DNA of 64,000 bases from NCBI GenBank assembly GCA_017302015.1, contig JAFLEE010000014.1:5097-69096 (forward strand), in the 5' to 3' direction. Shown one piece after another: positions 5,517-58,300 of the stretch. Every line of letters starts with the position of its first letter. Within the stretch, counting starts at the first letter, position 1. Origin of the DNA: Spirochaetota bacterium (GTDB taxonomy: Bacteria; Spirochaetota; UBA12135; COTS27; JAFLEE01). The notes beneath the pieces were generated by a model. That model did not search any database and was not told the origin of the DNA. It worked only from the letters and a program-made list of their open reading frames with translations. The position numbers were made by a program, and so were the translations under genes.

Positions 5517-6634
5517 AGCGCGCCCGGGGTCGTCCCCCCAAGCGGCGCCCCAGACCCAAACGGGGCGCGCTCCCTCCCGCCCCTCCTTCGGAAAGGGCGC
5601 TGCAGGTTCGCCATTACCTCGCGGGGGAAGCGCGCGCCGGTCGGCTCACGGCAGGGACCCCAATCCCCTCCGCCCGCGACCTCGCCCGAACCCTGGGGGT
5701 GAGCCTCAATACCGTCACCAAGGCCTTCGGCCTGCTGCGCCAGGATGGGGTGCTCGCCGGCGAGAAAGGCCGGGGCACCTACCTGGCGACCACCTTGACC
5801 CGCGGCACGGTGCTCTTGATCCACAACCGATTCCGGGAAGGGCTCGGCCCCTTGTCCCTGTTCACCTTGTCGCTGGACCGCTCGGTGGAGCTGCTCCTCG
5901 AGAAAGCGGGCTACCAAGTCGCCCTGTGCCCCGTGGCGGAGGATGGGTCCGAAATCCCGCGCATCGCCATCATGGACCGGCTCGCCACCGGGCGTTTCGA
6001 TTTCGCGGTGGACGTGGGCAGCGGCCGCTGGCACGGCGACTTTTCAAGGGCGGTCCAAAAGGCGGGCCTCGCGATGTACGCCATCCTTCCCCAGCTTGAA
6101 AATCCCCTCCACCGGGTCGTGGTGGGGTTTGATCTGGGCGATTTTCGTCGGAAGGCGCTCGAGGTTCTTGGGCCTCTCGGGGTTCGTCGCCCCCTTTGGC
6201 TCCACCGGGCATCCTGGGTCCCCGCGCCTTCCGGCGATCGTCCCCTGGGGAACAGCTCCGACGCGAAGATCATCCCGGTTGATGCTCCCCTGCCCATCGG
6301 CGGGGACCTGGATGGCGGGGCCGCGATGTTCGACAAGGCGCTGGATCGGGACGGCTCGATGGATGGGGCGGTGGTGGAGAACGACGTGTGGGCGGAGGTA
6401 CTCCAAACCCGGCTCCTGCACCGGGGGCTCAAGATCCCCCTGGTGGTGATGGCCAATCGGGCGCTGCCCCGGCATTTCGCCCTGCCGGTGACCCGCATCT
6501 TCGCGCCCCGCGAGAACCTCGGAGACCTGCTTTCGACCTGGTGGGCGGCCCCCACGGCGGGAAACCCCAAGGCGTGCCGCATCGATTTGCCATTCAGCGC
6601 CGAACCGATGCCCGGCGTGGTTCCCGTGGGGTGA
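5477..6634 (+). CDS. GntR-type winged-HTH fused to a LacI/PBP-like ligand-binding domain (transcriptional regulator); alternative GTG start at 5513
   Basis: HTH IPSARDLARTLGVSLNTVTKAFGLLRQDGVLAGEKGRGTYL, then a PBP-like domain. A basic RGRP-rich N-terminus, KRARGRPPKRRPRPKRG. GTG 5513 overlaps the upstream stop (GTGA). Confidence 0.7.
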   Translation: MGAGDHGAKQSPVKRARGRPPKRRPRPKRGALPPAPPSERALQVRHYLAGEARAGRLTAGTPIPSARDLARTLGVSLNTVTKAFGLLRQDGVLAGEKGRGTYLATTLTRGTVLLIHNRFREGLGPLSLFTLSLDRSVELLLEKAGYQVALCPVAEDGSEIPRIAIMDRLATGRFDFAVDVGSGRWHGDFSRAVQKAGLAMYAILPQLENPLHRVVVGFDLGDFRRKALEVLGPLGVRRPLWLHRASWVPAPSGDRPLGNSSDAKIIPVDAPLPIGGDLDGGAAMFDKALDRDGSMDGAVVENDVWAEVLQTRLLHRGLKIPLVVMANRALPRHFALPVTRIFAPRENLGDLLSTWWAAPTAGNPKACRIDLPFSAEPMPGVVPVG

Positions 6635-6769
6635 GGCGGGATTGGCCGACCCACTCATGGCCGCCAGCGATCCCGTTTGGGCCGCATCGCGCCGATTGGC
6701 AGGAAGGATCGGGGCCGCAGGTGCCGGCATTGACGCAGGGCTTTCTCCGGCCTTTAATAGTATCAGTAA

Positions 6770-8100
6770 TGATACATAAGAAACCCCGGCGCGAATCCTG
6801 GCTTCAGGTAACGTCAAATTTCTTTCGCACATTCACGACCACCCCTGTCAGCCTTAAGCAGCATTCATCACGGGCCTCCGGTAGATTTTGAGATATCGGT
6901 GGGTGCCCCATTTGGTCGAGGAAACGAACCGTAGACGGGCTGCGACCAACATGAGCGCCGAGCAGCCATCAGGGAAGGCGCCTACCACACGCGTGCGACG
7001 ACGTACCTCACGGTTAATCCGCTCCATCGGGTTGTGGGTCCGAATTTTCGTCCAATGACTGCGTGGGAAGCGCATGAAAGTGATTGTCTCCTCAATGCCG
7101 GATTCGATTAACGCGGCGGCCTGCTGGAGTTTCATCTTTCTAAGTTTCTTCACCACGAGGCGGGCTTTGGCAAGGGCGGCACTGCGGTCTTCCTGGGCAT
7201 GGATGGCTTTGAGCATTGCGGCCACTTCTCGGCCGTGCTTGCGAGGGGTCACCCCGAAGACATTTCGGTAGAAATGCACGACACAACGTTGCCATTTCGC
7301 TTGGGGGAAGATCTCCCCGAGCGATTCTACGAACCCCAGGGCCTTGTCCGAAATCACTAGCTTCACCTTCTGCAACCCTCGCTCTTTTAGGTGGCGGAGA
7401 AAACGGAGCCAACTATCCTTATCTTCCTTGCTTCCCTCGCAAACCCCCAGAATTTCCCGGTGACCATCAAGATTCACCCCGAAGGCGACGAGGACACTCA
7501 CGTTCTTATAATGGCCGCCCCAGCTGCGGTTGAGCCAAATGCCGTCCAAGTAGAGGTAGACGTATTCGGGCGCTAGTTTCTGGTTGTGCCAGGCATCGAT
7601 CTTTTCATAAAGCTGTTTATTGAGGTTACTGATCGTTCCAGGGGAAACCTTGGAACCCCAGAGTGCTTCTGTTATGTTTTCGACGCGTCTTACCGATACC
7701 CCTGCCAGATACATCTCCATGAGGGCTTCCTCGACCGAGATCATTTTGCGCCGATACCGTTCGATGATGGCACTTTCAAAGGGTAGGCTCCGGAGCTTGG
7801 GCATCTTTAGGGTCACGCTCCCCAGCGGGGTTTCAAGTTTCCGTGCGTAGTGCCCGGCACGGGTGGTTTTCCGCCCCGGGCTCCTTTCGTAGCGTGAAGC
7901 CTGTGCAATCTGCTGGGCCTCGCCATCCAGGAGCTGGTTGAGGGTGTCCGCGACCGTGCCCTCGACCAGCGTTTTGAGATGTTCCTCCACCTGGTGCCTA
8001 TCAATTTTTATTGCATTTTCGACCAAACTTGCCGATGATTTCATTGGTCCCTCCGTTGCGGGTTTGTTGGCAATTCATTCTCGCCAACAGGGGGGCCTTT
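6770..8100 (-). mobile_element. IS256-family insertion sequence (ends approximate)
   Basis: Intact IS256-type transposase gene with about 60-80 bp flanks. Terminal inverted repeats not confidently resolved by eye (weak ggcg[ac]gaat match at both ends). Confidence 0.65.
6854..8044 (-). CDS. IS256-family (Mutator-type) transposase
   Basis: 396-aa ORF with hallmark IS256 segments: YERSPGRKTTRAGHYARKLETPLGSVTLKMPKLR, MISVEEALMEMYLAGVSVRRVENITEALWG, YVYLYLDGIWLN, VLVAFGVNLDGHREILGV, WLRFLRHLKERGLQKVKLVISDKALGFVESL, KWQRCVVHFYRNVF, RTHNPMERINREVRRRTRVVGAFP. Confidence 0.95.
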   Translation of the reverse strand: MKSSASLVENAIKIDRHQVEEHLKTLVEGTVADTLNQLLDGEAQQIAQASRYERSPGRKTTRAGHYARKLETPLGSVTLKMPKLRSLPFESAIIERYRRKMISVEEALMEMYLAGVSVRRVENITEALWGSKVSPGTISNLNKQLYEKIDAWHNQKLAPEYVYLYLDGIWLNRSWGGHYKNVSVLVAFGVNLDGHREILGVCEGSKEDKDSWLRFLRHLKERGLQKVKLVISDKALGFVESLGEIFPQAKWQRCVVHFYRNVFGVTPRKHGREVAAMLKAIHAQEDRSAALAKARLVVKKLRKMKLQQAAALIESGIEETITFMRFPRSHWTKIRTHNPMERINREVRRRTRVVGAFPDGCSALMLVAARLRFVSSTKWGTHRYLKIYRRPVMNAA

Positions 8101-8121
8101 TTTAAATCTGAGAAAGATATT

Positions 8122-8825
8122 TTACGCTACCACACCGGTAATTGGGACACCATTGTCAGTCCGGATTCGCGTAGGAAGGCCATATTCTTTAAAGAGCCAA
8201 AAAAACAACTTCTTTGCGCCGAAATTTTCAGTAGATAGAAGTCCATGGGCAGCAAACAGATAGCGACTATAGGCGTCTGTGACTGTCAGGGGGGTGCAAC
8301 ACTCGCCATCGCCTGTTTTGAACTGTCCTTTGAAGTCCGCACACCAGACATCGTTAGGGGCCAAAATGTTGCTGTGCGGTTTACCGGGGTGCCCATTGAC
8401 TCTTCGTCGCCGCTTGCGTCAAATCATCCCGTTCCTTCCGAGGATGCCACAGACCGTAGAGCAGTGGGGCAATTCTCAGTCAGGATAATTACGCGCTACG
8501 GCAATAAAGACCTTTTAGCCTCCCAGGTCGGGTGGCGCAGGCGGGTAGCGATCAAAGCCTGCTCGATTTTAGGGGCTGTCTTCGTAGGGCTTTTACGTAG
8601 TCGCTGGGATTTTGGCACAAGGCCAGCAGGGCCCTCTTTGATGTAGCGGTCCAAAATTCCATATCCAGTATTTCGACCGATGTTGTAACGGTCACAAAAT
8701 TCGCTCATGGTATGACGCTTTTTCAAGTAGTCAGAAAGAAACGGAATTTTTTTGTCCATTGGGGTTACTTTTCTCCATGGCATTGGGCACCTCTCGGTGC
8801 TACAATGTCGGGAAAGTGTCACCAA
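8122..8825 (-). pseudogene. IS481-family transposase remnant (HTH region + truncated rve integrase core)
   Basis: ORF 8496-8825(-) has HTH plus KSQRLRKSPTKTAPKIEQALIATRLRHPTWEAK (IS481-like RSSRP..SP..T...E..I..LR..HP.WG). ORF 8122-8364(-) has rve-core motifs WCADFKGQF...TVTDAYSRYL...YGLPTRIRTDNGVPI and stops early. The two fragments are in different frames. Confidence 0.6.
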
Positions 8826-8934
8826 TGTCCCCCTACTAAAGTGTCACCCAGGTCAGGGGACCATACCTACCAAGGGCCCAACAAAGCGCCACTTCGGACG
8901 CCGCTGCGGCGACGCTGAGATCGGATGTTCGGCC

Positions 8935-9819
8935 CTAACCATCTTTCGATCCGGGCTTCGCCACCGAATCCCGCTGCACCAGAATCGCCTGGGCGAACTC
9001 GCGGATCGGGGTGCGGTCGCCGGCCCACAGGCGCGAGAGGGCTTCCACGCATTGGGCGCCGGCGGCGCCCTGGTTGAGGTCAACGCTCGTCAAGGGGGGT
9101 TGGAGGAAGGCGTCGAAATCCAAGTTATCGACGCCCACGAGGGAAAGGTCGCGGGGCAGGCTCACGCCCAAGCGCGTCGCGGCGTGCATGAGGGGCGGTA
9201 GATCGAAATCGGTGGTGGAGAACAGGGCGGTGGTCTTTTCGAGGACTGATTTGAGCCGGCGCGGGTTTCGGAAATATTCCGGAGCGGGGACGGACTCGAG
9301 GTCGAGGACCATGTCGTCGGAGGCCGGGAGTTCCCTCGCCTCGAGCCAACGCCGCCAGCATTTCTGGCGCAAGCGTTGCGCGGGGCCGTTCTTGATGAGG
9401 AGGCCGATGTGCCGATGGCCGTGCTCGAATAGGTGCTCGAGGGCCCGGCGCACGACCTCTTCTTCATCGATGGCCACCCAGTGCTGGGTCGGCCCATCGA
9501 CCGTGTAGGCGGAGGAACCGTAACCCAATACGGGGAGCGCTTTTCCGATGGAGACGGCGAGGTTTTTGGCGCCAACAGGATTGCGATGGACGATGATCGC
9601 CGAGAGATCGGGAAAGATGTCGCCCAGTTCATCGAGATGGCTCTCGATGAAGTCGAGGGCAGCGAAGTGAGCCACCGTATCGCCGCGCTGGGTGGCGGCG
9701 CCGTGGGCGACCCCGTGGAAGAAGGTGGCCGCCGTGGAGCGCGAAACCCCGCCCCGCCCGTCATAGGCCACCAGGATGCTACGATACTTTCCTTTCACGG
9801 CAGAACTATATTTTAACAA
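8935..9819 (-). CDS. LacI-type sugar-binding (Peripla_BP) domain protein lacking the N-terminal HTH; likely 5'-truncated regulator
   Basis: 294-aa ORF, SILVAYDGRGGVS...VAIDEEEVVRRALEHLFEHGHRHIGLLI...LVGVDNLDFDAFLQPPLTSVD. This matches the LacI ligand-binding core but there is an in-frame stop immediately upstream of the TTG/ML start and no HTH. Confidence 0.55.
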   Translation of the reverse strand: MLKYSSAVKGKYRSILVAYDGRGGVSRSTAATFFHGVAHGAATQRGDTVAHFAALDFIESHLDELGDIFPDLSAIIVHRNPVGAKNLAVSIGKALPVLGYGSSAYTVDGPTQHWVAIDEEEVVRRALEHLFEHGHRHIGLLIKNGPAQRLRQKCWRRWLEARELPASDDMVLDLESVPAPEYFRNPRRLKSVLEKTTALFSTTDFDLPPLMHAATRLGVSLPRDLSLVGVDNLDFDAFLQPPLTSVDLNQGAAGAQCVEALSRLWAGDRTPIREFAQAILVQRDSVAKPGSKDG

Positions 9820-10758
9820 ACAGAAAAATCAACCCTTCGCCGGGGAGCCGTGGGTGCCATTTCGGATACCGGGGGGAGGGAATCGCCGCCAGGTCGGGAG
9901 TTCCTGGGCCCTATCGTTGGATTCTACTCAGGATCCCGTGGACGATGCGAAGACGCTTAGTGTTCTCCGGGACGACGCTGGCCGAGCGGGGCGCCGCATT
10001 CATGATCGACCTCTCGCCGAAAGTGGCGACCGCGCAGAGGGTGCGGCGCTTTTGCACCCACGGCGCCACCCTTTTTTCCAAGGGGCTGGTCAAAGGCAGC
10101 ACGATCGGGTGCCGAAAACACAACCGCGGCTTCGATGCCCCCATCGGTCGCCCGGTGTGCACCCGTGTGCGTGCCCCGCGGGGTCCACCCGGCGAGGGAA
10201 GTCGACGGGTTCACCCAGATGAAGGCCCGCCCCCGGGATACGGGAGAAAGTGGAGGCCACGACCCCTGGGTTCGGAAGGTCGTCTCCAACCGCCTGGTCA
10301 CGCCTTTCATCCGGGAACACTAACTCGGCTCACCCTCGGGGGCCCCCCTGCCCGCCGATGAACCCGGGCAATTCATGCGATTCGCAATCCCGTCCTTCGG
10401 AAAACGGGGCGTGGCCTAGGCCACGCTCGGTGAACTTGGGGAACTCTATGGGAGGATGCGCCTCCTCGACCAGCGGGCCCGGCTCCCCGGAGCGGTCACC
10501 CGAAACTAGTCCCTGGCCTCCCATCCCGATCCGCGCGCCGTCGGCTTCTATCAAAGCGGCCCCCCGAGCATGATGAAGGCCGTCCGTGAAATACTGGCGG
10601 CTTTCCAGGTTCCAGCAGATCATATCGCGTCGGATGGGTTCTGAGCGCGAGGGAGTGGGCGGTCTCCCCCCCGAACAACCTTCCCACCGCCCTAGCGCCC
10701 CGAAAAGTTCGGGGGAAATGCCTCGCCACCGGACCGCAACCCGAACAAGGAGCCCGTC

Positions 10759-41707: not shown

Positions 41708-41829
41708 GGGAGATCCTCGCTCGGCGGGAATGCCCATTCTCGATCCTTCCAACTCTGCGTGGATGGGTGGCCCTTTCACGGCTTTCCCGGTTCCTTAGCC
41801 TGATCATAGAATGGCACGGCAGGCTTCTC

Positions 41830-43080
41830 ATGCGCCCCCGAAAACTCATCGCCGTCTTCTTCGGCAATATGTCGTTCCGTTCCCTGGGCGACGACGTGCT
41901 CGGCGACTTGGTGCGTTCCCTGGGGGAAGTGCGGCGCAGCCGCGACCTCAACCTCGTCTTCTACGACCGAAAAGACCGGCTGGACGCCTTCGAGGGCACG
42001 GGCGAGTGGCGCGATTACGACGGGGTCCTGGGGTGCGTCCCTTCGTCCGACCCCGTGGCGGTGGCCGCCTGGGAACGCTTGGAACGCCGTCTCCCCTGCG
42101 TGGCGTTCCTGTCCGCGCCCCTTTCCGAATCCGTCCACCGGCATTATGTGGGCATCGATGAACGGTCGGCCTGCGAGCTCCTGGTTTCGCATGTGGGGGA
42201 CCAGGGGGCCCGGTCCATCGGCTGGTGCGCCTTCGCCGCGGAGCGCTTCACGCGCCAGAGGTTCGAAGGGTACCGCAGCGCGCTCTCCCGACGGGGGTGG
42301 CCCCTGCGGCAAGCATGGGTGCACGGATTTTCTGTCGAGACGGGCGCCCCCCTCCCCGGAAGGTGGCGGGCGACTCCGGGGAACCGGCCTTCCACGTCCT
42401 CGCGCTTGTCGGTCTACCGCCGCCTCTTGGCGGCGAAGCCCCGCCCCGATGCCATCCTGTGCGAGGGCGACCCCATGGGCTTGGAGTTGATGGCCGAAGC
42501 GCGGTGCCTCGGGTTGCGCGTGCCCGAGGACCTCATGGTCACCGGCTTCGATAATAGCCGCTCGATCCTCGGAGCGCGCCCCGAACTCACCACCATCCAC
42601 CAGGATTTTCGGCGCATCGCCCGCGAGGCGCTCCTGCTCCTCCTCGAACTCATCGGGAAACCGCGGCCCGGGCCCGAGGCGATCCTCCTGCCGCCCCGGC
42701 TCCTCGCCCGCGCTTCGACGCTGAGGCGGGGCGACCGAACGGGGGAGCCCAACATTGCCGAGCGGCGCCGGGATTGGGGGCGGCGCCTGGATCGCCACCT
42801 GGGAGATCCGGGCCCCGCGGCGCTCCTCGCGGGGGAGCTGGGGCTGTCCACCCCCTATTTCCTTCGCCGATGGCGCGCCCTCATGGGGGAGCCGTTCGTG
42901 AAGGACCTCAACGAGCGCCGCTTGGAGAAGGCCGCCCGAAGCCTCCGTTCCACGAAAAAATCCGTCACCCTCGTCTATCTGGAATGCGGGTTCTCCAACC
43001 ACGTGCACTTCAACCGGCTCTTCCGGCGGGCCTATGGGCAGACGGCGCGGGCCTACCGAAATACATACGAAAACCGATGA
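41830..43080 (+). CDS. XylR-like regulator: periplasmic-binding-protein-like sensor domain fused to C-terminal AraC-type HTH (alternative start 41767)
   Basis: N-terminus KLIAVFFGN...FYDRKD...DGVLG...VAFLS (PBP-like), C-terminus ...LAGELGLSTPYFLRRWRALMGEPFVKDLNERRLEKAARSL...LVYLECGFSNHVHFNRLFRRAYGQTARAYR. Confidence 0.75.
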   Translation: MRPRKLIAVFFGNMSFRSLGDDVLGDLVRSLGEVRRSRDLNLVFYDRKDRLDAFEGTGEWRDYDGVLGCVPSSDPVAVAAWERLERRLPCVAFLSAPLSESVHRHYVGIDERSACELLVSHVGDQGARSIGWCAFAAERFTRQRFEGYRSALSRRGWPLRQAWVHGFSVETGAPLPGRWRATPGNRPSTSSRLSVYRRLLAAKPRPDAILCEGDPMGLELMAEARCLGLRVPEDLMVTGFDNSRSILGARPELTTIHQDFRRIAREALLLLLELIGKPRPGPEAILLPPRLLARASTLRRGDRTGEPNIAERRRDWGRRLDRHLGDPGPAALLAGELGLSTPYFLRRWRALMGEPFVKDLNERRLEKAARSLRSTKKSVTLVYLECGFSNHVHFNRLFRRAYGQTARAYRNTYENR

Positions 43081-43156: not shown

Positions 43157-46100
43157 ATGCGGTTCATCCCCCCCTTCGCCCTCCTCCTCGCCTGTCTCGC
43201 CGCCGAGGAGGCTCCCCGGCCGGCCTTCGACGCCAGCGGGGCGATCCGCTTCGCCGACAAGTCGCTCACCATGGCGAAAGGGCACCTCCTCTATACGGTC
43301 GACGGGAAGGAACTCATGAATCTCTACCCGTTCTGGTCCGCGCCCGGGCAATCCTACGGGGAAGCCGGCTACGGGGATACCCAAACGGTCAACGGCCTCG
43401 ACGCCGCCGCGGGCGAGTGGGTGGTCGCGGCGACCCTGCCCAAGGCCGGCGACGCGAAGTACGAGATCCGCGTCGGGGTGCTGCCCGACGGGCTCGTGCG
43501 CTACCGGGTGCGCTTCACCGAACTCGGTGATCTGAAGAGCAAGGCGCTCCAGGTGCGCTTCCCCAAATCGACCCTCGACGGGACGACCATCCGCGATGAG
43601 GGGCAAGACATCACCGTGGCGCCGTTCGACGGGGAACGCAAGAGCTTCCTCTTGCCCAAGGGCCACAGGCCCGAGTTCTTCGCCGAAAACCCCGACCGCG
43701 CCATCGGTATAAGCCTGCTCAAGCACGACGAACGGCAGACCCGCTACGGCATCAGCGACGCCCGCCACGACAAGGGTCTGCCCCGCATGGAATACCGGCC
43801 GGGGTTCAACGCCGAGAACGAGATCGAACTCACCTTGGACCTGCGCAAACTCAGCGACGCCCGGCGAAGCCGGCTGGGGAAGGAGAAGGGGGATGCGTGG
43901 GACTTGCTCGGCCTCGGGAAATTCAACCGCATGGAACTCCCGAACTTCGCCGCGTCCTCCAACCTCATCCAGAATCCCGGGTTCGAGGAGGGGTTCCACG
44001 GCTGGGAACTGGTCGGGGCCACCCGGGTGACCAATTTGGACCACCTGCGCGATTGGCTTCTCATCGACGACCGGGTCGCCTTCCAGGGCAAGCGCAGCCT
44101 GCGCTTCGAACTGCGGCCATCCTACCAGACCAACTTCAACACCACCCTTTCCCTCGTGGCCCCCTACGCGTTCCAACTCAAGGTCGGCAAGAAGTACACC
44201 CTCAGCTTCTACGCGAAGGCCGAGACGGACGGCCTCAGCGTCGGCACGGTGGCCTGGGGCGCGAAAACCTGGGGCAAATGGCTGGGGGCGACGCGCGTGA
44301 AACTCACCCGCGACTGGAAGCGCTTCACCGTCAGTTTCGCCCCCACCGAGACCCTGACCACGGTGATGTTCGGCGTGCCGTGGTGGTTCGATGAGACCTA
44401 CCAGGGCGTGCGCGAGACCACCCATTTCTGGGCCGATGCCTTCCAATTGGAGGAGGGCGAGGCGGCCACCGAGTTCACGGTGAAGCCCGTCTCCATCCTC
44501 GCCGACGGCCTCAAGGCCTGCTACGGGCTCCGGGAAGAGAAGCCGATCGCCCTCCAACTCGTCAATAACCGCGACGTCGAATGCACCGTGAACGCGGTGG
44601 TGAGCGTGCGCGATTTCTTCAAGAACGAGGTGGCGGCCAAGGTCTTCCAGGGGGTGAAACTCCCCCCCGGGGCGCGGGTGCCCCTCGCCTTCACCCCCGG
44701 GAAGGAACTCGCCGCCATCGGGTACTACACGGTGCGCGTGGGGGTCGAGTCGGGCGGCCAGCAGGACCGGGATTTCTTCCCCTTCACGGTCATCGATCCC
44801 TATTCGAAGGAAGAACTCGCGGCGATGAAGCACCGCCTCTTCTTCACCTGGGGGAACACCCCCGGCGGCGACCGCGAGCGCAACGTGCGCCGGCTGCGCG
44901 AACTCGGCGTCGGGGGCCTCCAGCCCCAGATGTACCCCATGGACGAGGGCTCCTACCGGCTCATCGCCAACGAGGGGATCCTCCAATTCACGGGGCTCTT
45001 CGGCAGCGACGCCAACAACATGTACATCGCCGACCCCGCCGAGCGGGCCCTCGTGGCGCCCCTGTGGCACCTCAAGCGCTTCGAGGGCCCGGCCTACGAG
45101 GCCTACACGAATTTCCTGCGGGACACCTGGATCCCCCGCTACCGGCATTATCCCTACATCAAGTTCTTCAACGAGCCCCACCTCACCTTCGCCGAGGGGG
45201 TCGACGCCTTCGGCCCGAGCAATATGGCCAAACTCTACCGCGACCTCGCCCCGATCCTCCGCGCGGGCATCCCCGGGGTGAAACTCATCTCCAGCGACCC
45301 GGCCAATATCGGCGACCAGGCCCGCCGATGGCACGAGCAGGTCTTCGCCGCGGGCGGCGGGAAGGTCCTCGACATCCTCGCCGGCCACCCCTACCGCGAG
45401 AAGCCGGAGCGGCCGGACCTCGACGCCGATATCCGGGCCTTCATCGACCTCGCCGACCGGCTGGAGTTCAAGGGCGAACTCTGGTTCACCGAGGCGGGGA
45501 ACCACCCCATGCTCCAACTCCCCGGATTCGGGGCCGTGGAACCGCGCCACAGCGCCCTCACCGGCGACCTGCCCGGCCGGCGCGGGCTCATCGCCTATAA
45601 TATCCGCTACCTGCTGATGACGCTGAAATACGCGGACCGCATCCGCATGTTCCTCAATTGGAAGGTCGGTATCGCCCTCAACGCCCTCGACGGCACCCCG
45701 AGCCCCGTGGGGGTGGAATACAACGCCGTGGCCCGGGCCTTCGGCAATAGCCGCTACGTGCGCGATTTCGCCTACGCCGACGGGGTGAAGACCCTCCTCT
45801 TCGACGACGGGGGCGGACGGGGCGTGGCCGCCATCTGGGATTTCGAAGACCGCCTCGAGGCCGGGGAACGCAAGCCCAACCGCTTCCGCCTCCACGCCAA
45901 GGGCGGGGCGACCGCCGCCGATCTCTTCGGCCGGCCCCTCCGCCACGCCACCCGGGAGGGCGACGACCTCTATTTCGACCTCGAGGAGGTGCCCGCGATC
46001 CTGCGCGCCCCCGATGTGAAGACCCTCGCGGAGGCCCTGGAAAAATCCGGCGTGCAGTACGGCGCGGCGGAACAAGTGGCCGTCGCCGTCGGCCTCTCCG

Positions 46101-47008
46101 GTTTCACGACGCTGAAGCTCGATTTCAAGAACCGGGGCGCCACGGCGTTCAGCGGGACCGCGTCGGTGAAGGTGGACGGGAAGCCGAAGGAGCTCCCCCT
46201 CGCCCTAAGGCCCTTCGGGGAACAATCGGTGCCCGTGCCCGTACGGGGGGACGGCGACTCGGCGCGCTATAGCCTCGCCACGCCCATCCGCTTGGTCGAT
46301 GCCCAGGGCAAGCTCGTCAGCGAGTCGGGCGAGCGGCGCTACCATGCCCTCTTCTGCAACCGGCGCAAGGGGCCCATCGCCATCGACGGCGACCTTTCGG
46401 ATTGGGCCGGCTACCGCTCGGGGCTCGTGGGCAAGGACGCCTTCGACGTCGTGGAATACCAGAAGGGCGCCCGCGCCGGCTTCCAAGACTTAGGCGCCCG
46501 CTTCTGGGCGGCGTGGGATGAATCGGCCCTCTACCTCGCCGTCGAAGTCTCCGACGATACCCACACCCAGGCCAAGACCGGCGGGGGCACTTGGGACGGC
46601 GATTCCGTGCAGGTCTTCATCGATGCGTTCCGCGACGGCCAAGAGACCTCCCTCGCCATGCAGGATGATTACGCCTACGCCTTCGCCAAGACGCCCCTGG
46701 GCGACCAGGTCTGGCGCGCCTTCAGCCCGGACCGCCAGCTCTCCTGGCTGGATATCCAGAATAACACCCTCGAGCCCGGCGTGGAGGCCAAAATCATCCG
46801 GGATGATGCGAAGAAGGTCACGCGCTACGAGCTGCGTTTCCCCGCCAAATACATCCAACCGGTGGCCCTCAAGCAGGGGAACGTCATCGGCCTCGGCCTC
46901 ATGGTCAACGACGCCGACGGCGGGGGGCGCAAGACGGCCATCACCACCTGCGACGGGAAGGAGGGGTGGATGAAGCCCTATAATCTCTCCTTCTTCTATT
47001 TCGAGTGA
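43157..47008 (+). CDS. 1283-aa secreted multidomain glycosidase: GH-A catalytic domain + CBM4/9-like + C-terminal CBM9-like
   Basis: Signal peptide MRFIPPFALLLACLAAEEAP. CBM4_9-like NLIQNPGFEEGFHGWELVGATRV. Catalytic ...YIKFFNEPHLTF... (NEP) and ...ELWFTEAGNH... (nucleophile-like TE). C-terminal ...ARFWAAWDESALYLAVEVSDDTH... CBM9 signature. Confidence 0.8.
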   Translation: MRFIPPFALLLACLAAEEAPRPAFDASGAIRFADKSLTMAKGHLLYTVDGKELMNLYPFWSAPGQSYGEAGYGDTQTVNGLDAAAGEWVVAATLPKAGDAKYEIRVGVLPDGLVRYRVRFTELGDLKSKALQVRFPKSTLDGTTIRDEGQDITVAPFDGERKSFLLPKGHRPEFFAENPDRAIGISLLKHDERQTRYGISDARHDKGLPRMEYRPGFNAENEIELTLDLRKLSDARRSRLGKEKGDAWDLLGLGKFNRMELPNFAASSNLIQNPGFEEGFHGWELVGATRVTNLDHLRDWLLIDDRVAFQGKRSLRFELRPSYQTNFNTTLSLVAPYAFQLKVGKKYTLSFYAKAETDGLSVGTVAWGAKTWGKWLGATRVKLTRDWKRFTVSFAPTETLTTVMFGVPWWFDETYQGVRETTHFWADAFQLEEGEAATEFTVKPVSILADGLKACYGLREEKPIALQLVNNRDVECTVNAVVSVRDFFKNEVAAKVFQGVKLPPGARVPLAFTPGKELAAIGYYTVRVGVESGGQQDRDFFPFTVIDPYSKEELAAMKHRLFFTWGNTPGGDRERNVRRLRELGVGGLQPQMYPMDEGSYRLIANEGILQFTGLFGSDANNMYIADPAERALVAPLWHLKRFEGPAYEAYTNFLRDTWIPRYRHYPYIKFFNEPHLTFAEGVDAFGPSNMAKLYRDLAPILRAGIPGVKLISSDPANIGDQARRWHEQVFAAGGGKVLDILAGHPYREKPERPDLDADIRAFIDLADRLEFKGELWFTEAGNHPMLQLPGFGAVEPRHSALTGDLPGRRGLIAYNIRYLLMTLKYADRIRMFLNWKVGIALNALDGTPSPVGVEYNAVARAFGNSRYVRDFAYADGVKTLLFDDGGGRGVAAIWDFEDRLEAGERKPNRFRLHAKGGATAADLFGRPLRHATREGDDLYFDLEEVPAILRAPDVKTLAEALEKSGVQYGAAEQVAVAVGLSGFTTLKLDFKNRGATAFSGTASVKVDGKPKELPLALRPFGEQSVPVPVRGDGDSARYSLATPIRLVDAQGKLVSESGERRYHALFCNRRKGPIAIDGDLSDWAGYRSGLVGKDAFDVVEYQKGARAGFQDLGARFWAAWDESALYLAVEVSDDTHTQAKTGGGTWDGDSVQVFIDAFRDGQETSLAMQDDYAYAFAKTPLGDQVWRAFSPDRQLSWLDIQNNTLEPGVEAKIIRDDAKKVTRYELRFPAKYIQPVALKQGNVIGLGLMVNDADGGGRKTAITTCDGKEGWMKPYNLSFFYFE

Positions 47009-47228
47009 GGCGGATGGGGGACGATCGGCCTTTGGCGACCTGAGGAACTGCGCTCCCACGGGCTTTCGCCCCTGGGTGCGTTTCGGACCCGGTTCGTTCA
47101 TTTTTCCATCCCCGGGATCGCCGGGGCCCCGCGATGGGCAAATTCCGGGTCCATTTGCTATACTCATATATAGTAAAGACTTGAAAGGGCGCCTTCGCGA
47201 ACCGGGCGCCTTTTGGGACCCGCCCCGT

Positions 47229-48800
47229 ATGACAACCGGAAAAATCCTCATCGCCGCGGCCCTGCTGGCCTCGGCCGCCTGGCCTCAGCGGGAGCCCATC
47301 GCCCCCTTCGAACTTCCCCAGACCGCCCCGCGGGTTTCGCCCATCGACGACCTGGTCTTCGACAAACTCGCCGCTTCGGGGAAGAAGCCCAATTACCTCG
47401 TCAGCGACGAGGTCTATGCGCGGCGGGTCGCCTTCGACCTCACCGGCACCCTGCCCACCGCCGCCGAAATGCGGGCTTTCCTCGCCGACCGGTCCACGAA
47501 CAAACGTGCCCGCCTGGTGGACCGCCTGCTGGCATCGGATCCTTACGCCTCCTACTTCACCATGAAATGGTGCGATCTCCTGCGGGTGAAGAGCGAGTTC
47601 CCCATCAACCTCTGGCCCAACGCGGTGCAGGCCTACCAGCGCTTCATCTACGCCTCCATCAAGACCAACCTCCCCTTCGACCGTTTCAGCCGCGCGCTCT
47701 TGACCACGAGCGGCGGCAATTTCCTCGACCCCGCGGCCAATTTCTACCGGGCCGTCCAGAAAAAGGAGCCCTATAATATCGCCCAAGCGGTGGCCCTCAC
47801 CTTCATGGGCGCCCGTTTCGAGGCGTGGCCGGCGGCGAAGCAAGCGGGCCTGGCCGCGTTCTTCTCCAAGGTGGCCTATAAATCCACCCTCGAATGGAAG
47901 GAGGAGATCGTCTTCTTCGATCCCGACCTGCCCGCGTTCACCAACGAACGGGGGCAGCCCATCGATGCGGTCTTCCCGGACGGTGCCCGGGCCGCCCTCG
48001 ATCCCGCCGTCGATCCCCGCAAGACCTTCGCCGACTGGCTCCTGCGGCCCGAGAACCCATATTTCGGGAAGGCCATCGCCAACCGGGTCTGGTACTGGAT
48101 GATGGGCCGGGGAATCGTCCACGAACCCGATGATTTCCGGGACGGCAACCCGCCGCAGAACGCCGCGCTCTTGGCGTGGCTCGAGGGCGCCCTCGCCTCC
48201 AACGGCTACGACCTCAAAGCGCTCATGCGCCTCATCGCGGCCTCGGGCACCTACCAGCAATCCTCCATCCCCCTCGCGGTGTCCTGGAGCAACGATCTGA
48301 ACTTCTCCCGCTACCTGCCCCGGCGCCTCGAGGCCGAGGTGCTCATCGACGCGATCTGCCAACTCACCGGCACCTCCGAATCCTACTCGAGCCCCATCCC
48401 CGAGCCCTTCACCTTCATCCCCCCTTCCAGCCGCTCGGTGGACTTGGCCGACGGCAGCATCAATAGCGCCTTCACCGAGATGTTCGGGCGGCCCGCGCGC
48501 GATACCGGCACCGAGGCGGAGCGCAATAACACGCCCAACGCCGAGCAGAAGATCCACCTCCTCAACTCGAGCCATATCCTCGACAAGTTCAAGCAGGCCC
48601 GCAATTTCCGCCGCGCCATCGCCCAGGCCAAGGACCCCGAGAAATCCGTCGACGAGGTCTACCTCTGGGTGCTCTCCCGCGCCCCCACCGAGGCGGAACG
48701 CCAGGCGGCCCTCGCCTATTCCAAAGTGAACCGGGCCGAGCCGTGGATCGACCTGGCCTGGTCGCTGGTGAACGCCAATGAGTTCCAGTTCAAGCATTAG
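47229..48800 (+). CDS. DUF1549 / DUF1553 (PSCyt2/PSD1-type) protein, PVC-group specific
   Basis: Signal peptide MTTGKILIAAALLASAAW. ...RRVAFDLTGTLPTAAEMRAFLAD...KRARLVDRLLASDPYASYFTMKWCDLLRVKSE... (DUF1549) and a C-terminal DUF1553-like ...ARDTGTEAERNNTPNAEQKIHLLNSSHI... Confidence 0.8.
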   Translation: MTTGKILIAAALLASAAWPQREPIAPFELPQTAPRVSPIDDLVFDKLAASGKKPNYLVSDEVYARRVAFDLTGTLPTAAEMRAFLADRSTNKRARLVDRLLASDPYASYFTMKWCDLLRVKSEFPINLWPNAVQAYQRFIYASIKTNLPFDRFSRALLTTSGGNFLDPAANFYRAVQKKEPYNIAQAVALTFMGARFEAWPAAKQAGLAAFFSKVAYKSTLEWKEEIVFFDPDLPAFTNERGQPIDAVFPDGARAALDPAVDPRKTFADWLLRPENPYFGKAIANRVWYWMMGRGIVHEPDDFRDGNPPQNAALLAWLEGALASNGYDLKALMRLIAASGTYQQSSIPLAVSWSNDLNFSRYLPRRLEAEVLIDAICQLTGTSESYSSPIPEPFTFIPPSSRSVDLADGSINSAFTEMFGRPARDTGTEAERNNTPNAEQKIHLLNSSHILDKFKQARNFRRAIAQAKDPEKSVDEVYLWVLSRAPTEAERQAALAYSKVNRAEPWIDLAWSLVNANEFQFKH

Positions 48801-48914
48801 CCCAAGCCCGATGGCGCCCCGCAAGGGCCCGGACATCGCAACGCGCGCCACGCCGCCAAGCGCCCGGCGCGCAGGATGGCGGAACCTCGATCGAATCGCG
48901 ACCAGACGACCTGA

Positions 48915-50261
48915 ATGGGAGGCCCCATGAAGCCACGAAACATCCTCCGCGACGCCGACGCCCTCTCGCGCCGGGAAATCCTCCGGCTCATGGCCATCGG
49001 GGCGCTCACCGTTTCGGCCCTGCCCGCCCGGGCCGAAAAGACCCCCTCGGGCAAGGGCACCGCCCGCTCCGTCATCCAGATCTGGCTCTCGGGCGGCCCG
49101 ACGCACCTGGACACCTTCGACCCGAAGCCCGAGGCGGGGACCGAATACATGGGCCCGCTGCGGGCGATCCCCACCAATGTCGACGGGGTGCAGATCGGCG
49201 AACTCCTGCCCCTCCTCGCCAAGCAGGCCGACAAGTACAGCTTGCTGCGGGGGATGACTCACGGCAATAACGGCCACGAGACCGCGGCCTACATGGTCCA
49301 GACCGGTTGGACGCCCGGGGGAACCCTCGTGCACCCCTGCCTGAGCGCGGTGCTCACCCAGCGCCTCATCGCGGCGGGAAGTTATAAGGGGCTCATCCCC
49401 CCCTATCTCGTCCTCACCCAACCCCAGGGCCGTTTCTCCGAAGCCGGCTTCCTCGGGCAGCGGTGCAAGCCCTTCGCCACCGGCGGCGACCCGTCCCAGG
49501 CCCGCTTCACCGTGGAGGGGGTGGTCTCCAAGGACCTCACCCCCGAGCGCCAGGAGGCGCGCAAGACGCTCTTGGGCCAGGTGGACGCATTGGCCCAAGC
49601 CGGCGCGACGATGCCCGAACTCGCCCCCGCGGCCGCCAGCGAGCGCGAGGCCTGGGAACTCATCCTCGGTCCGGCGGGCAAGGTCTTCGACCTCGGCCAG
49701 GAAGCCAAGGAACTCCGCGACAAGTACGGCATGAACCCCTTCGGCCAATCGTGCCTCGCCGCGCGGCGCCTGGTGGAGAGCGGCGTGCCCTATATCACCA
49801 TCAATTTCGGCGGCTGGGACCACCACAAGCAGATCTTCCCGGCCCTGCGCCAGAAATTGCCCCAACTCGATCGGGGCGTGGCCTCCCTCCTGGAAGACCT
49901 CGCCTCCCGCGGGCTCCTCGAGAGCACGGTGGTGTGGGTGGGCGGCGAGTTCGGGCGCACGCCCAAGGTGCAGCCCGAGGCGCCATGGAACGGCGGACGC
50001 CACCATTTCGGCCAGGCGTTCAGCCATCTGGTGGCGGGCGGCGGCTTTCGCGGGGGCTCCGTCATCGGCGCCACCGACAAGACGGGCGACACGGTGAAGG
50101 ACCGCCCCATCTACCCCTGGGACCTCATCGGGAGCATCTATGAGCGCCTGGGGCTCAGCCCAGAAGCCACGGTGCCCCACCCTTCGGGCTATGCCGTGCG
50201 CGTGCTGCCGCCGATGGAGGCGAAGACGCCCACCGGGGGCCGGCTCAAGGAATTGGTATGA
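48915..50261 (+). CDS. DUF1501 family (alkaline-phosphatase-like superfamily) protein with Tat signal (alternative start 48927)
   Basis: SRREILRLMAIGALTVSALPARA twin-arginine signal. ...VIQIWLSGGPTHLDTFDPKPEAG..., ...INFGGWDHH..., ...VWVGGEFGRTPK... typical of DUF1501. Confidence 0.8.
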   Translation: MGGPMKPRNILRDADALSRREILRLMAIGALTVSALPARAEKTPSGKGTARSVIQIWLSGGPTHLDTFDPKPEAGTEYMGPLRAIPTNVDGVQIGELLPLLAKQADKYSLLRGMTHGNNGHETAAYMVQTGWTPGGTLVHPCLSAVLTQRLIAAGSYKGLIPPYLVLTQPQGRFSEAGFLGQRCKPFATGGDPSQARFTVEGVVSKDLTPERQEARKTLLGQVDALAQAGATMPELAPAAASEREAWELILGPAGKVFDLGQEAKELRDKYGMNPFGQSCLAARRLVESGVPYITINFGGWDHHKQIFPALRQKLPQLDRGVASLLEDLASRGLLESTVVWVGGEFGRTPKVQPEAPWNGGRHHFGQAFSHLVAGGGFRGGSVIGATDKTGDTVKDRPIYPWDLIGSIYERLGLSPEATVPHPSGYAVRVLPPMEAKTPTGGRLKELV

Positions 50262-52516
50262 GGCGCCGCGGGATCCTTTCTCTCGCTCTCGCCGCGGGCG
50301 TCCTCGCGGCCCAGGATCGGCCCCACGTGGGCTTCGTCTACCCGGCCGGCGCGAAGGCGGGCGAGACCATTGTCGTCGTCATCGGCGGGCAGTACCTCGA
50401 GGGCACGAGCAATTTCAATTTCACGGGCATCGACATCCCCGGGCGCGTCTACTCCTTCACCCGCGACCTCGATCCCCGCACCGTCGGCCAACTCAAGAAC
50501 CGAAAGGAGATCCTCGAGGCCCGGTTCACCAATGCCAGCGACGCCGAGCGGCCCCAGATCGAGCGCCAACTCGCCCAGGTGCTCCAGCAACTCGCCTACG
50601 AGGAGAAGATGCCGGAGGATCCGGATTACGCGCGCTACCTGCGGGCGATGCAGCCGAAGAAGCAGCCCAACGCCCAACTCACCGACCGCGTGCGCCTCGA
50701 GATCACGGTGCCCTCCAACGCGAGCCCGGGCCGGCACGAACTGCGCCTGGGGACCGCCGTGGGCATGTCGGAACCCCTGGCGTTCTGGATCGGCGATCTC
50801 CCCGAGGCGCGGGAGCGCGAGCCCAACGATTTCCCCGGCCAGGCGGTAGCGGTCTCGAACCTGCCGGCCGTGCTCTCCGGCCAGATCCTCCCGGGCGATG
50901 TAGATTCCTGGCGCATCCCGGCAAAGAAGGGGCAGACCCTGGTCTTCGCGGTCCAGGCCCGCTCCCTGGTGCCCTACCTCGCCGATGCCGTGCCCGGCTG
51001 GTTCCAGGCCGTCATCACCCTCACCGACGCCCGCGGGAAGGAAGTAGGCTACGCCGACCGCTTCCGCAATAACCCCGAACCGGTCCTCGTCGTCAAGATC
51101 CCCGCCGAAGGGGATTATGTCCTCCAGATCCGCGACTCCATCTACCGAGGCAGGGAAGATTTCGTCTACCGCATCAGCGCCGGCGAACTCCCCTTCGTCA
51201 CCGGCATCTTCCCCATGGGCGGCGCCGCCCGGGGGCGCACGGCGGTGGAACTCACGGGCGTGAACCTGCCCCAGCCCCGGGCCGTCATCGACCTCGCGGC
51301 CAACGAACTCGGGCCCGTCATCCTCACCAATTTCTCCGCGCTCCTCCCCAACCCGATCCTCTTCCACGCCGAGGCGCTTCCGGAATGCGCGGCGTCCCGG
51401 GGCAACCTGGCCCCGGCCTCCGCCCAGGCCCTCGCGCTGCCCGTCATCGTCAACGGGCGCGTGGAACAGCCGGGGAAACCCGTCTATTTCAAGTTCCAGG
51501 GGAAGGCGGGGGAGGAGCTCATCGCCGAAACCTACGCCCGCCGTTTGGGCTCGCCCATGGATACGGCCCTGAAACTCATGGATCCCAATGGCCGCGTCCT
51601 CGCCACCAATGACGACTGGAGCGACCCCATGGCGGGGCTCCAGACCCATTACGCCGACTCGTTCCTGCGCTGCAAGCTCCCGCTCGACGGGGAGTACCTC
51701 CTCGCCCTGCGCGACGTGCAGGACCACGCCGGCGAGGCCTTCGCCTATCGCCTGCGCCTTAGCCCGCCGCGCCCCGATTACCGGTTGCGCTTGGCGCCGT
51801 CGAGCGTGAAGGTGCGCCGGGGGAATACCGTCGCCCTCGATGTCCTCCTCTCGCGCATCGACGATTTCGCCGGGCCCGTGACGCTCTTCCTCTCCAACGC
51901 CCCCGCGGGGTTCGTCCTGGGCGGGGCGGAGCTCCGTTCCCGGGAACGCAACCAGCGCATCACGCTCAGCGCCCCGCTGAACCCCCAGACGAACCTGCTG
52001 AACCTCGACGTCTGGGGCGCGGCCGTCCTCGACGGGAAGCCCGTGGTGCGCCGGGCCCTCCCCGCGGAGGACATGATGCAGGCCTTCGCCTACCGCCATT
52101 TCGTGCCGTCGGAAGAGTTCATCGTCGCCCTGGCCCCCCGGGCCCCGGCCTTCCTCGCGGTGGACCAGGAGCCGGGGCAGACCGCCCGCCTCATCCCGGG
52201 TTCCAATCTGTCACTGGGGATCCGGTTCCCGGGAACGCCGGCCGGGAGGAGATTCCCCGTGGTGAACCTGAACTTCGAACTCGACCAGCCGCCGCCGGGC
52301 ATCAGCGTGGCCCAGGTGGTCCAGGGCGACCCTACCAACGCGCCCCGACTCGTGCTGAAGGCCGACCCCTACAGCGCCAAGCCCGGGCAATGCGGCAATC
52401 TGATCGTGAAGGCCTTCACGGTTCCCCGGCCCTCCACCAACACCAATGCGCGGCCCGGGAATCCGTCGCTCCTGGGGGTGCTGCCCGCCGTGTCCTTCGA
52501 GGTGGTGGCGCCATGA
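50258..52516 (+). CDS. 752-aa secreted hypothetical protein with pre-peptidase-C-terminal (PPC)-like beta-sandwich repeats
   Basis: ATG 50258 overlaps the upstream stop (ATGA). Signal MRRRGILSLALAAGVLAAQD. Repeated ...REPNDFPGQAVAVSNLPAVLSGQILPGDVDSWRIPAKKGQTLVFAV... / ...LPVIVNGRVEQPGKPVYFKFQGKAGEELIAE... modules. Confidence 0.7.
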   Translation: MRRRGILSLALAAGVLAAQDRPHVGFVYPAGAKAGETIVVVIGGQYLEGTSNFNFTGIDIPGRVYSFTRDLDPRTVGQLKNRKEILEARFTNASDAERPQIERQLAQVLQQLAYEEKMPEDPDYARYLRAMQPKKQPNAQLTDRVRLEITVPSNASPGRHELRLGTAVGMSEPLAFWIGDLPEAREREPNDFPGQAVAVSNLPAVLSGQILPGDVDSWRIPAKKGQTLVFAVQARSLVPYLADAVPGWFQAVITLTDARGKEVGYADRFRNNPEPVLVVKIPAEGDYVLQIRDSIYRGREDFVYRISAGELPFVTGIFPMGGAARGRTAVELTGVNLPQPRAVIDLAANELGPVILTNFSALLPNPILFHAEALPECAASRGNLAPASAQALALPVIVNGRVEQPGKPVYFKFQGKAGEELIAETYARRLGSPMDTALKLMDPNGRVLATNDDWSDPMAGLQTHYADSFLRCKLPLDGEYLLALRDVQDHAGEAFAYRLRLSPPRPDYRLRLAPSSVKVRRGNTVALDVLLSRIDDFAGPVTLFLSNAPAGFVLGGAELRSRERNQRITLSAPLNPQTNLLNLDVWGAAVLDGKPVVRRALPAEDMMQAFAYRHFVPSEEFIVALAPRAPAFLAVDQEPGQTARLIPGSNLSLGIRFPGTPAGRRFPVVNLNFELDQPPPGISVAQVVQGDPTNAPRLVLKADPYSAKPGQCGNLIVKAFTVPRPSTNTNARPGNPSLLGVLPAVSFEVVAP

Positions 52517-53013
52517 GCGGCGCCGTGACCGGGCGAATCGGCGCCCGAACAGCCGGGTGGATCCTGGGACTCGCCCTCGCCTGCGGCGCGCTCCTGGCCG
52601 ATCCTCCCTCGATCTACGACCCGATGGCCGATGCCGGGGCGGCGGTGAAGGCCGCCCTCGAAGGGGCCGCCGCCACCCGCGTGCGGGTGATGGTCGTCTT
52701 CGGGGCCGATTGGTGCGGGGATTGCCGGGCCCTCGACGCGGCCCTAAAGAGCGCGGATAACGCCCCGCTCGTCGAGAAACACTTTAAGGTGGTGAAGGTC
52801 AACGTCGGAAAATTCGACAAGAACCTTGAACTCGCGGCGTCCTACGGGCTTCCCTTGAAGCGCGGCATTCCCGGCTTGGTCTTGCTCACCCAGGCGGGAA
52901 AAGTCGCCTACGTCACCAAGTCCGGAGAACTCGCCAGCGCCAGGAAAATGGGAGCCGAGGGGATCCACGAGTTCCTCGTGAAACTCGCCCAGCGCCCCGA
53001 CGAAGCGCCCTGA
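52513..53013 (+). CDS. thioredoxin-fold protein (CxxC: WCGDC), secreted
   Basis: ATG 52513 overlaps the upstream stop (ATGA). Signal MSGAVTGRIGARTAGWILGLALACGALLA. RVMVVFGADWCGDCRALD thioredoxin motif. Confidence 0.75.
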   Translation: MSGAVTGRIGARTAGWILGLALACGALLADPPSIYDPMADAGAAVKAALEGAAATRVRVMVVFGADWCGDCRALDAALKSADNAPLVEKHFKVVKVNVGKFDKNLELAASYGLPLKRGIPGLVLLTQAGKVAYVTKSGELASARKMGAEGIHEFLVKLAQRPDEAP

Positions 53014-53025
53014 GGGGAAAGCCGG

Positions 53026-53043
53026 GCGCCCGAATCGGGCCGC
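53026..53043. terminator. weak GC hairpin (gcccg-aat-cgggc) in the 33-nt gap between convergent genes; candidate bidirectional terminator
   Basis: Read from the sequence: a 5-bp GC stem with a 3-nt loop, followed on + by ttattt. Weak. Confidence 0.25.
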
Positions 53044-53046
53044 GAC

Positions 53047-53517
53047 TTATTTCCCGAAATGCCAGCGGGCCCCGATGGCCAGGGCGTGGTCGAATCCGAG
53101 TGTTCTGATGATTTGCACCCCCGGGGCCCATTCGAGGTAGACCTCGATCTGGGAAACGGGGAACCACTGGAGCGCGAGGGGCACGCGGGCGCCGAGGTTG
53201 AAGCCGCCCCCGAGGCCGATGCCGGCGCCCACGCCGATATAGTACCAGAAGGGCGTCTGGGTGATCTGGCCGCGCCAGAAGAGCCAATCCACCGAGGCGC
53301 CGAAATAATTGGCGAAGCTCCAGTGCAGGTTCACCTGGAAGGGGTGGTTCTTATGCCCGACGAGGCCGGTGAGGCCGAGGCCGTCGGTATAGAGGCTGAA
53401 GAAGGAGTAATTGAGGCCGATGGCGCCGAGCACCGTGCTTCCCTGGGCGGGAGCTTTCGCGAGGGCCGGGACGCTGAGGGCGCCGGCGAGCAGGAGGAGG
53501 ACGAGGGTTTTCTTCAT
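53047..53517 (-). CDS. small outer-membrane beta-barrel protein (OmpW/porin-like)
   Basis: 156 aa. Signal MKKTLVLLLLAGALSVPALA. Alternating aromatic/Gly-rich beta-strands, C-terminal ...ARWHFGK (terminal aromatic-x-x). Confidence 0.7.
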   Translation of the reverse strand: MKKTLVLLLLAGALSVPALAKAPAQGSTVLGAIGLNYSFFSLYTDGLGLTGLVGHKNHPFQVNLHWSFANYFGASVDWLFWRGQITQTPFWYYIGVGAGIGLGGGFNLGARVPLALQWFPVSQIEVYLEWAPGVQIIRTLGFDHALAIGARWHFGK

Positions 53518-53581
53518 GGTCGATCCTTGGGATGGAGGGCGATCTATTTTATTTTCAGGGATCGTTCCGGGTCAATCGGGC

Positions 53582-58300
<4,719 letters not shown>

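Follow-up and report, generated by a model that had tools for sequence, protein, structure and literature searches.

A widespread PSCyt2/PSD1-DUF1501-PPC gene trio and its local thioredoxin neighbour in a Spirochaetota bacterium

Do four closely packed genes of a Spirochaetota bacterium form one redox-dependent system, or is the functional unit a smaller one? The question concerns positions 47229-53013 of a stretch of 64,000 nucleotides (nt) from contig JAFLEE010000014.1 (assembly GCA_017302015.1), which is referred to here as the window. Its plus strand carries four consecutive genes, called g1 to g4 in the following, which encode a PSCyt2/PSD1 (DUF1549/DUF1553) protein, a DUF1501 protein, a beta-sandwich protein with pre-peptidase C-terminal (PPC) domains and a thioredoxin-fold protein; a convergent gene, g5, follows. 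The original prediction for this locus took g1 to g4 as one translationally coupled, redox-dependent extracytoplasmic system. We find that the functional unit is very probably the three-gene module g1-g2-g3, of which the thioredoxin gene g4 is not a part. That is, what had been observed in the sequence is confirmed, and its interpretation is partly supported.

Direct reading of the sequence reproduces the positions of all five genes as well as both predicted overlaps, i.e., the ATGA shared by g2 and g3 at 50258-50261 and the one shared by g3 and g4 at 52513-52516. Since same-strand overlaps of 4 nt are frequent across bacterial genomes, such an overlap taken alone is a weak sign of a functional link.

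Gene order across species

We fetched 80 loci from different species, each encoding a g3 relative of about 40% identity, and searched them with the window proteins. They stem from Verrucomicrobiota, Planctomycetota, Bryobacteraceae and other Acidobacteriota, Armatimonadota, Victivallales and a few oddly labelled bins. For 66 loci, 3.3 kb or more of upstream sequence is available to read gene order from; downstream content can be read from 73 loci. In 61 of these 66 loci, g3 is directly preceded by g1 and g2, with order and strand as in the window; of the others, three contain g2 without g1 and two contain neither gene. The predicted tight coupling of the PPC protein to the DUF1549/DUF1553 and DUF1501 pair is thereby supported. 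Median identities to the window proteins are 52% for g1, 58% for g2 and 41% for g3. As a rule, g2 and g3 follow each other closely: 62 of 70 loci offer a start codon no more than 40 nt from the g2 stop, and 18 of the 70 allow an overlap of 4 nt. The pair of g1 and g2 had been described as a widespread but uncharacterised module of the Planctomycetes-Verrucomicrobia-Chlamydiae (PVC) group. The module is widespread and uncharacterised, but it extends beyond the PVC group and covers at least five phyla.

The two genes downstream of the trio behave differently. Neither a g4-like nor a g5-like gene is found by tblastn (E <= 10) in any of the 73 other trio loci whose sequence continues downstream, and no thioredoxin family is among the Pfam matches of the open reading frames (ORFs) downstream of g3 in these loci. 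The arrangement with g4 and g5 recurs solely in L087, a metagenome contig from JGI that belongs to the same organism and, because it is 99-100% identical, provides no independent evidence; among the other 86 loci, L087 is also the only one with a g5 homologue. We conclude that g4 and g5 are lineage-specific neighbours of the trio. In the window, g4 is probably co-transcribed with the trio, yet it stands outside the conserved module, and its proposed role as a dedicated component is not supported.

With regard to the literature, the module is not new. Kamneva et al. 2012 (PMC3542564) described DUF1501 neighbourhoods in Planctomycetes, Verrucomicrobia and Lentisphaerae and called their function unknown; their four-gene cluster consists of a DUF1501 gene and genes for a signal-peptide protein with a weak PPC match, a PSCyt1/Big_2/PSCyt2/PSD1 protein and a PSCyt1/WD40 protein. 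He et al. 2017 (PMC5615132, supplement) noted that PSCyt2 genes usually adjoin DUF1501 genes, with nothing known of their function, and that some genomes hold dozens of PSCyt/PSD1 and DUF1501 copies. For Rhodopirellula baltica, 41 copies of each domain were counted (PMC2754498). The window resembles these clusters in that a DUF1501 gene with a signal for twin-arginine translocation (Tat) stands beside a PSCyt2/PSD1 gene and a gene for a signal-peptide protein with a weak PPC match, conserved across species. It differs from the cluster of Kamneva et al. in being a minimal form, i.e., g1 has neither PSCyt1 nor Big_2 and no PSCyt1/WD40 gene is in the neighbourhood. It differs from both descriptions in that a fixed three-gene unit is found here that also occurs outside the PVC group, and in the thioredoxin gene, which is appended in this organism only.

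In the searchable literature, we found no paper that reports a function for these DUF families and none on DUF1501 and DUF1553 together, in agreement with the original statement that the function is essentially undescribed. GenBank already holds the five proteins (MBN8216185-189) in a metagenome-assembled genome (MAG) labelled "Spirochaetes bacterium", named in gene order DUF1553 domain-containing, DUF1501 domain-containing, hypothetical, thioredoxin family and hypothetical; NCBIfam has no family match for g1, g2 or g3. The window is thus another example of a known module with labelled genes and adds little that is new of its own. What is gained is a clear outline of the unit: pair and PPC protein go together as three fixed genes of 40-60% identity across phyla, without heme, without a carbohydrate-binding module (CBM) and without need for a thioredoxin. 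Few unexplained gene families of Planctomycetes, Verrucomicrobia and some Acidobacteria are as large as PSCyt/PSD1 and DUF1501, and with the redox idea removed the minimal trio offers a clean target for biochemistry and genetics.

Domains, folds and conserved residues of the trio

The Pfam search supports the DUF1549/DUF1553, DUF1501 and thioredoxin assignments of the original prediction, all above the gathering scores. For g1 (47229-48800, plus strand, 523 amino acids), these are PSCyt2/DUF1549 (PF07583, 105.4 bits, cut-off 29.8, E 5e-30) and PSD1/DUF1553 (PF07587, 152 bits, cut-off 28.5, E 2.5e-44). We found no match to the PSCyt1 domain and no CxxCH heme motif in g1, i.e., it does not qualify as a c-type cytochrome. 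Like g3, it starts with a hydrophobic, signal-like segment. The structure model of g1 is nearly all helical and of good overall confidence, with a mean predicted local distance difference test score (pLDDT) of 80.6 and a predicted template modelling score (pTM) of 0.83. Its most conserved stretches, KSEFPINLWPN (121-131), SPIPEPFTFIP (388-398) and DGSI..F.EMFGRP.RDTG.E.ERNN (408-434), coincide with the segments of pLDDT below 50 (about 122-128, 385-398 and 407-435). That the most conserved parts are the least confident ones of an otherwise confident model points to partner-dependent folding and suggests that these loops become ordered only on contact with another protein, for which g2 is the most plausible candidate.

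The g2 protein (48915-50261, plus strand, 448 amino acids) matches DUF1501 (PF07394) with 294.8 bits (cut-off 27, E 1.4e-87) over profile positions 1-378 of 390. Two in-frame ATGs are present, at 48915 and 48927, and a GGGAGG at 48917-48922 lies between them, five bases before the second. The GenBank protein uses the first ATG, another gene caller the shorter form of 444 amino acids; judged by its spacing to the GGGAGG, the start at 48927 appears more likely. Residues 18-24 form the twin-arginine motif S-R-R-E-I-L-R, of which R19 is invariant and R20 conserved in at least 90% of 33 orthologues, so that export via the Tat pathway can be inferred. The same 33 sequences share the invariant residues H116, H121-E122-T123-A124, D302, H304, E345 and R348 (within E345-F-G-R348), R362 and H364; the only invariant cysteine is C280.

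To which enzymes might g2 be related? A profile of 73 g2 orthologues was aligned by hhalign with six sulfatases from the flanks of the loci (probability 63%, E 6.8e-5, 356 columns). The first strand is matched, the CxPxR formylglycine site of the sulfatases falls on H-E-T-A, and their metal-binding Asp falls on the invariant E345. This agrees with the placement of DUF1501 in the Pfam clan of alkaline phosphatases and sulfatases; the support for a kinship of g2 with these enzymes is moderate. A formylglycine motif (C/S-x-P/A-x-R) is absent from g2 at the aligned nucleophile position, where the 33 orthologues invariably have H-E-T-A; this suggests a threonine nucleophile, T123, as in nucleotide pyrophosphatases and phosphoethanolamine transferases. 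We also considered Cys280 (within C-L-A-A-R) as formylglycine site and rejected it, since the alignment puts CxPxR about 155 residues upstream at 121-124.

Sequence searches of the PDB with g1, g2 and g3 gave nothing usable. For the g2 profile, the best relevant PDB match is a weak one to an S1_8 sulfatase (E 0.4) in the same region as the hhalign alignment; thermonuclease matches of this profile were taken as chance. Compared with type I sulfatases and the alkaline phosphatase superfamily, the alignable part covers the first strand, the nucleophile helix and the D-x-x-V-G...L...GL...NT...D/E-G region, both are exported, and the conserved His, Asp and Glu of g2 could bind metal. Unlike type I sulfatases, g2 has H-E-T-A in place of CxPxR, its first Asp-Asp metal site is not evident, and its gene has an obligate-looking partner, all this at a moderate significance of the match.

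For g3 (50258-52516, plus strand, 752 amino acids), the PPC match (PF04151) by itself is below the gathering score (18.9 bits, cut-off 25.9, E 0.0028). The assignment is nevertheless secure at the family level because all 23 aligned g3 relatives match PF04151 at E <= 0.01 (best 1.2e-13) and the model fits a ColG domain. The family is large: a word-indexed search yields at least 6,904 proteins, an exhaustive one 1,500 clusters at 50% identity with E <= 1e-30. The g3 model (pLDDT 85, pTM 0.81) is a chain of about six beta-sandwich domains, with a helical segment inserted at residues 73-134. Two of the domains are PPC-like (about 183-310 and 376-502) and 28% identical to each other (E 2e-8). The earlier description of g3 as built of PPC repeats thus holds for the presence of PPC at the level of family and fold, but there are two such domains only, beside about four other beta-sandwiches and the insert. 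No catalytic domain is seen in the g3 model, and the label "peptidase" on one g3 relative (P0042) was rejected on these grounds.

Foldseek searches of the PDB relate g3 to the calcium-dependent collagen-binding domains of the clostridial collagenases ColG and ColH (entries 1nqd, 5iku and 3jqw). The ColG tandem 5iku is matched with E 1.5e-12, and single domains reach template modelling scores (TM) of 0.83 (1nqd) and 0.80 (3jqw). Matches to alpha-2-macroglobulin and DeCLIC were dismissed as functional leads, since with TM 0.11-0.15 they reflect mere strings of beta-sandwiches and g3 contains domains of no other type. The family consensus of g3 also shares with ColG/ColH the linker motifs of E-x-E-P-N type before each PPC domain, which bind calcium in ColG; in the window g3, the second of these motifs is degenerate. 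Unlike ColG/ColH, g3 has no attached protease, its two PPC domains are embedded among the other beta-sandwiches, and its conserved loop ADAVPGWFQ (242-250) has no identifiable counterpart there. Within this loop, ADAVPGW is invariant, F and Q are nearly so, and residues 242-248 have a pLDDT below 50. As in g1, strong conservation thus coincides with the lowest confidence of the AlphaFold prediction, a pattern suggestive of folding against a partner, and the loop may be a contact site as well.

Some loci depart from the common arrangement around g3. A Spirochaetota MAG (L088) encodes a g3 relative of 48% identity at 8001-10457 with no g1 or g2 nearby, close to an alpha-L-fucosidase and a 1478-aa (amino acid) CBM9_1 protein; a PPC protein of the g3 type can hence exist apart from the g1-g2 pair. 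In six loci (L011, L017, L019, L029, L050, L063), the g3-type gene is tandemly duplicated, with copies about 38-41% identical to the window g3. In a Planctomycetota MAG (L001/L012), there is no g1; the g3 relative is preceded by a 611-aa protein (5850-7685) that matches N_methyl (weakly) and DUF1501, and further N_methyl genes stand in a row upstream.

A proposed complex and its alternatives

The explanation we favour, at a probability of about 0.55 overall, combines two claims: a conserved trio without the thioredoxin, which is very probable, and a complex of its products outside the cytoplasm with an esterase-type chemistry, which is rather doubtful. The three proteins would be exported to the periplasm or cell surface, with heme-less, helical g1 as obligate partner of g2. 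The unstructured invariant loops of g1 would fold onto g2 and possibly complete or gate its active site. The g3 protein, with immunoglobulin-like and two calcium-type PPC domains, would anchor the complex to the cell surface or to a substrate that is polymeric or insoluble, and g4 would not be required.

The chemistry of this complex is likewise put forward as a tentative proposal. Here, g2, folded before its export via Tat, would be the catalytic subunit, a metal-dependent esterase or transferase of the alkaline phosphatase/sulfatase kind that uses T123 of H-E-T-A instead of the formylglycine of true sulfatases. It would act on a phosphate or sulfate ester carried by a polymer of the envelope or the environment.

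Several points weigh against this explanation. What the analysis shows is which genes and domains are present, their conserved order, the close g2-g3 spacing, the export signals and the lack of g4 and g5 in other loci; the complex, its catalytic residues, its chemistry and its substrate are inferred. The sulfatase kinship of g2 stands at 63% probability, no PDB sequence match is significant, and the metal-binding Asp usually found after strand 1 is not evident, i.e., g2 has WxxGGP there and not DD. Beside this, g3 relatives sometimes come without g1 or g2 (L088; L056, L069). Finally, the ATGA overlap of g3 and g4 permits a local accessory role of the thioredoxin, e.g., in keeping the invariant Cys280 of g2 reduced.

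A bolder version, which we consider rather unlikely, would make the heme-less and CBM-less trio the ancestral core of the PSCyt/PSD1-DUF1501 expansion and a new kind of two-subunit extracytoplasmic enzyme. With its invariant and intrinsically unfolded PSD1 loops, g1 would reach into the DUF1501 subunit and build or gate a Thr-based metallo-esterase site, with the PPC protein as tether to an envelope polymer. If so, a near-fixed sequence over at least five phyla would speak for a basic task at the cell envelope and not for nutrient scavenging.

Among the alternatives, the one that survives best, though still improbable, makes the trio an accessory of polysaccharide breakdown, which removes sulfate or phosphate from, or binds, a glycan attacked by neighbouring enzymes such as the 1283-aa CBM protein encoded upstream of g1. 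This protein carries CBM_4_9 and CBM9_1 and its gene stands behind an AraC-type regulator. The related locus L003 encodes a CBM9_1 protein close by and, immediately upstream, a CBM_4_9/Beta_helix protein; sulfatases, GH28 and a PcRGLX lyase are found in the flanks of other loci, and He et al. 2017 (PMC5615132) suggested carbohydrate roles for CBM-bearing PSCyt proteins. The trio proteins, however, have no CBM, and between the CBM gene and g1 lie 220 nt that contain sites resembling a promoter and a terminator. Nor are the flanks conserved. All-against-all clustering of the flank ORFs shows that neighbours beyond the trio vary and yields small recurrent families only, none of which is present in more than about 12 of the 80 loci: prepilin-type N_methyl proteins upstream of g1 in about 12 verrucomicrobial loci, Tat-signal GFO/IDH/MocA oxidoreductases in about 8 loci and sulfatases in about 6. 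For the longest ORF just 3' of g3, a Pfam scan of the 73 loci finds no family in more than 5. An identity of 50-60% that persists across phyla in any neighbourhood is more in keeping with a fixed core function.

We regard it as very improbable that all four genes form a redox-dependent extracytoplasmic system in which g4 reduces or oxidises cysteines of the trio or of a ligand it handles. The g4 protein (52513-53013, plus strand, 166 amino acids) is indeed a secreted protein of the thioredoxin family: it matches Thioredoxin_7 with 44.7 bits (cut-off 27, E 1.5e-11), has a signal peptide and carries its CGDC at residues 68-71 within WCGDC. Its gene overlaps g3 by 4 nt, is preceded by the Shine-Dalgarno-like GAGGTGG, and has the same arrangement in L087; one invariant cysteine, C280, is available in g2. 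With the near-identity of L087, the latter recurrence carries no weight of its own, and a thioredoxin gene follows the trio in none of the 73 other loci. Fold signature, signal peptide and WCxxC are those of stand-alone periplasmic thioredoxins (Thioredoxin_7, related to the C-terminal domain of DsbD), from which g4 differs by overlapping the g3 stop, a linkage not seen in the three relatives looked up. The closest relatives outside this organism form a compact family of secreted proteins of about 151 amino acids and 50-63% identity, which occur in many other bacteria, the few named ones being from Burkholderiales. Three of them on long contigs (54-60% identity) are solitary, with unrelated neighbours, i.e., MFS and ABC transporter genes, a TonB-type receptor and toxin-antitoxin pairs.

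The trio itself offers little for a thiol-disulfide partner to act on. Neither CxxCH nor CxxC occurs in any of the three proteins, and no cysteine pair is conserved across their orthologues; g3 has no conserved cysteine, the window g1 lacks a cysteine that is present in most orthologues, and Cys280 of g2 is the sole invariant one. Given that g4 is absent elsewhere, that its relatives are solitary and that the trio is without conserved cysteine pairs, the predicted redox system with a dedicated partner comes down to one ATGA overlap in one lineage.

An electron-transfer device at internal membranes, as proposed in 2012 for PSCyt/DUF1501 clusters (PMC3542564), is even less probable: the Pfam name 'planctomycete-specific cytochrome' and the Tat signal of g2, frequent in cofactor-containing redox enzymes, are outweighed by a g1 without PSCyt1 and CxxCH, by the resemblance of g2 to hydrolases of the sulfatase kind and not to redox enzymes, and by trio loci outside the PVC group in Acidobacteriota, Armatimonadota and Spirochaetota-labelled MAGs.

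Junctions, signals and flanking genes

The gap of 220 nt between the upstream CBM gene and g1 contains a weak terminator-like hairpin and, at 47135..47164 on the plus strand, a promoter-like site (TGGGCA-18-TATACT with a TG upstream; 9 of 12 consensus matches). It is located about 65 nt ahead of the g1 start; a consensus match alone is no proof of function, but the site is consistent with g1 opening its own transcription unit. No terminator-like site is seen on the plus strand between g1 and the end of g4. The genes g1 and g2 are spaced by 114 nt, and this spacer is predicted to fold no better than shuffled sequence (z +0.87). For regulatory RNAs, Rfam gives no match in 46800-53800. The G+C content of the region is about 67%, so that spurious ORFs are common.

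Directly upstream of the trio, the plus-strand gene at 43157-47008 encodes the 1283-aa protein with a signal peptide, CBM_4_9 and a C-terminal CBM9_1. Pfam shows no catalytic domain in it; by eye, its middle part has NEP and TEAG motifs that recall clan GH-A glycosidases. It is preceded by the AraC-type regulator at 41767-43080 (plus strand), which has a periplasmic-binding-protein-like sensor domain. Two other MAGs with the label Spirochaetes or Spirochaetota (L003, L088) encode similar giant CBM9_1 proteins in the vicinity of g3 relatives.

Downstream, the convergent g5 (53047-53517, minus strand, 156 amino acids) has a signal peptide and a promoter-like site of its own at 53575-53546. It had been predicted as a small outer-membrane barrel gene. 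Convergent it is, and the protein is possibly an 8-stranded outer-membrane barrel, as suggested by an OMP_b-brl match below the cut-off (20 bits, cut-off 28.7, E 8e-4); DUF3996 is likewise matched below cut-off (E 0.003). With L087 excepted, it is absent from the other loci and not a part of the module. Just past g5, the minus-strand gene at 53582-58300 encodes a hybrid histidine kinase of about 1560-1570 amino acids; beside a long N-terminal region without recognised domain, it comprises HisKA, HATPase_c, receiver and Hpt domains, as assigned from the identical contig L087.

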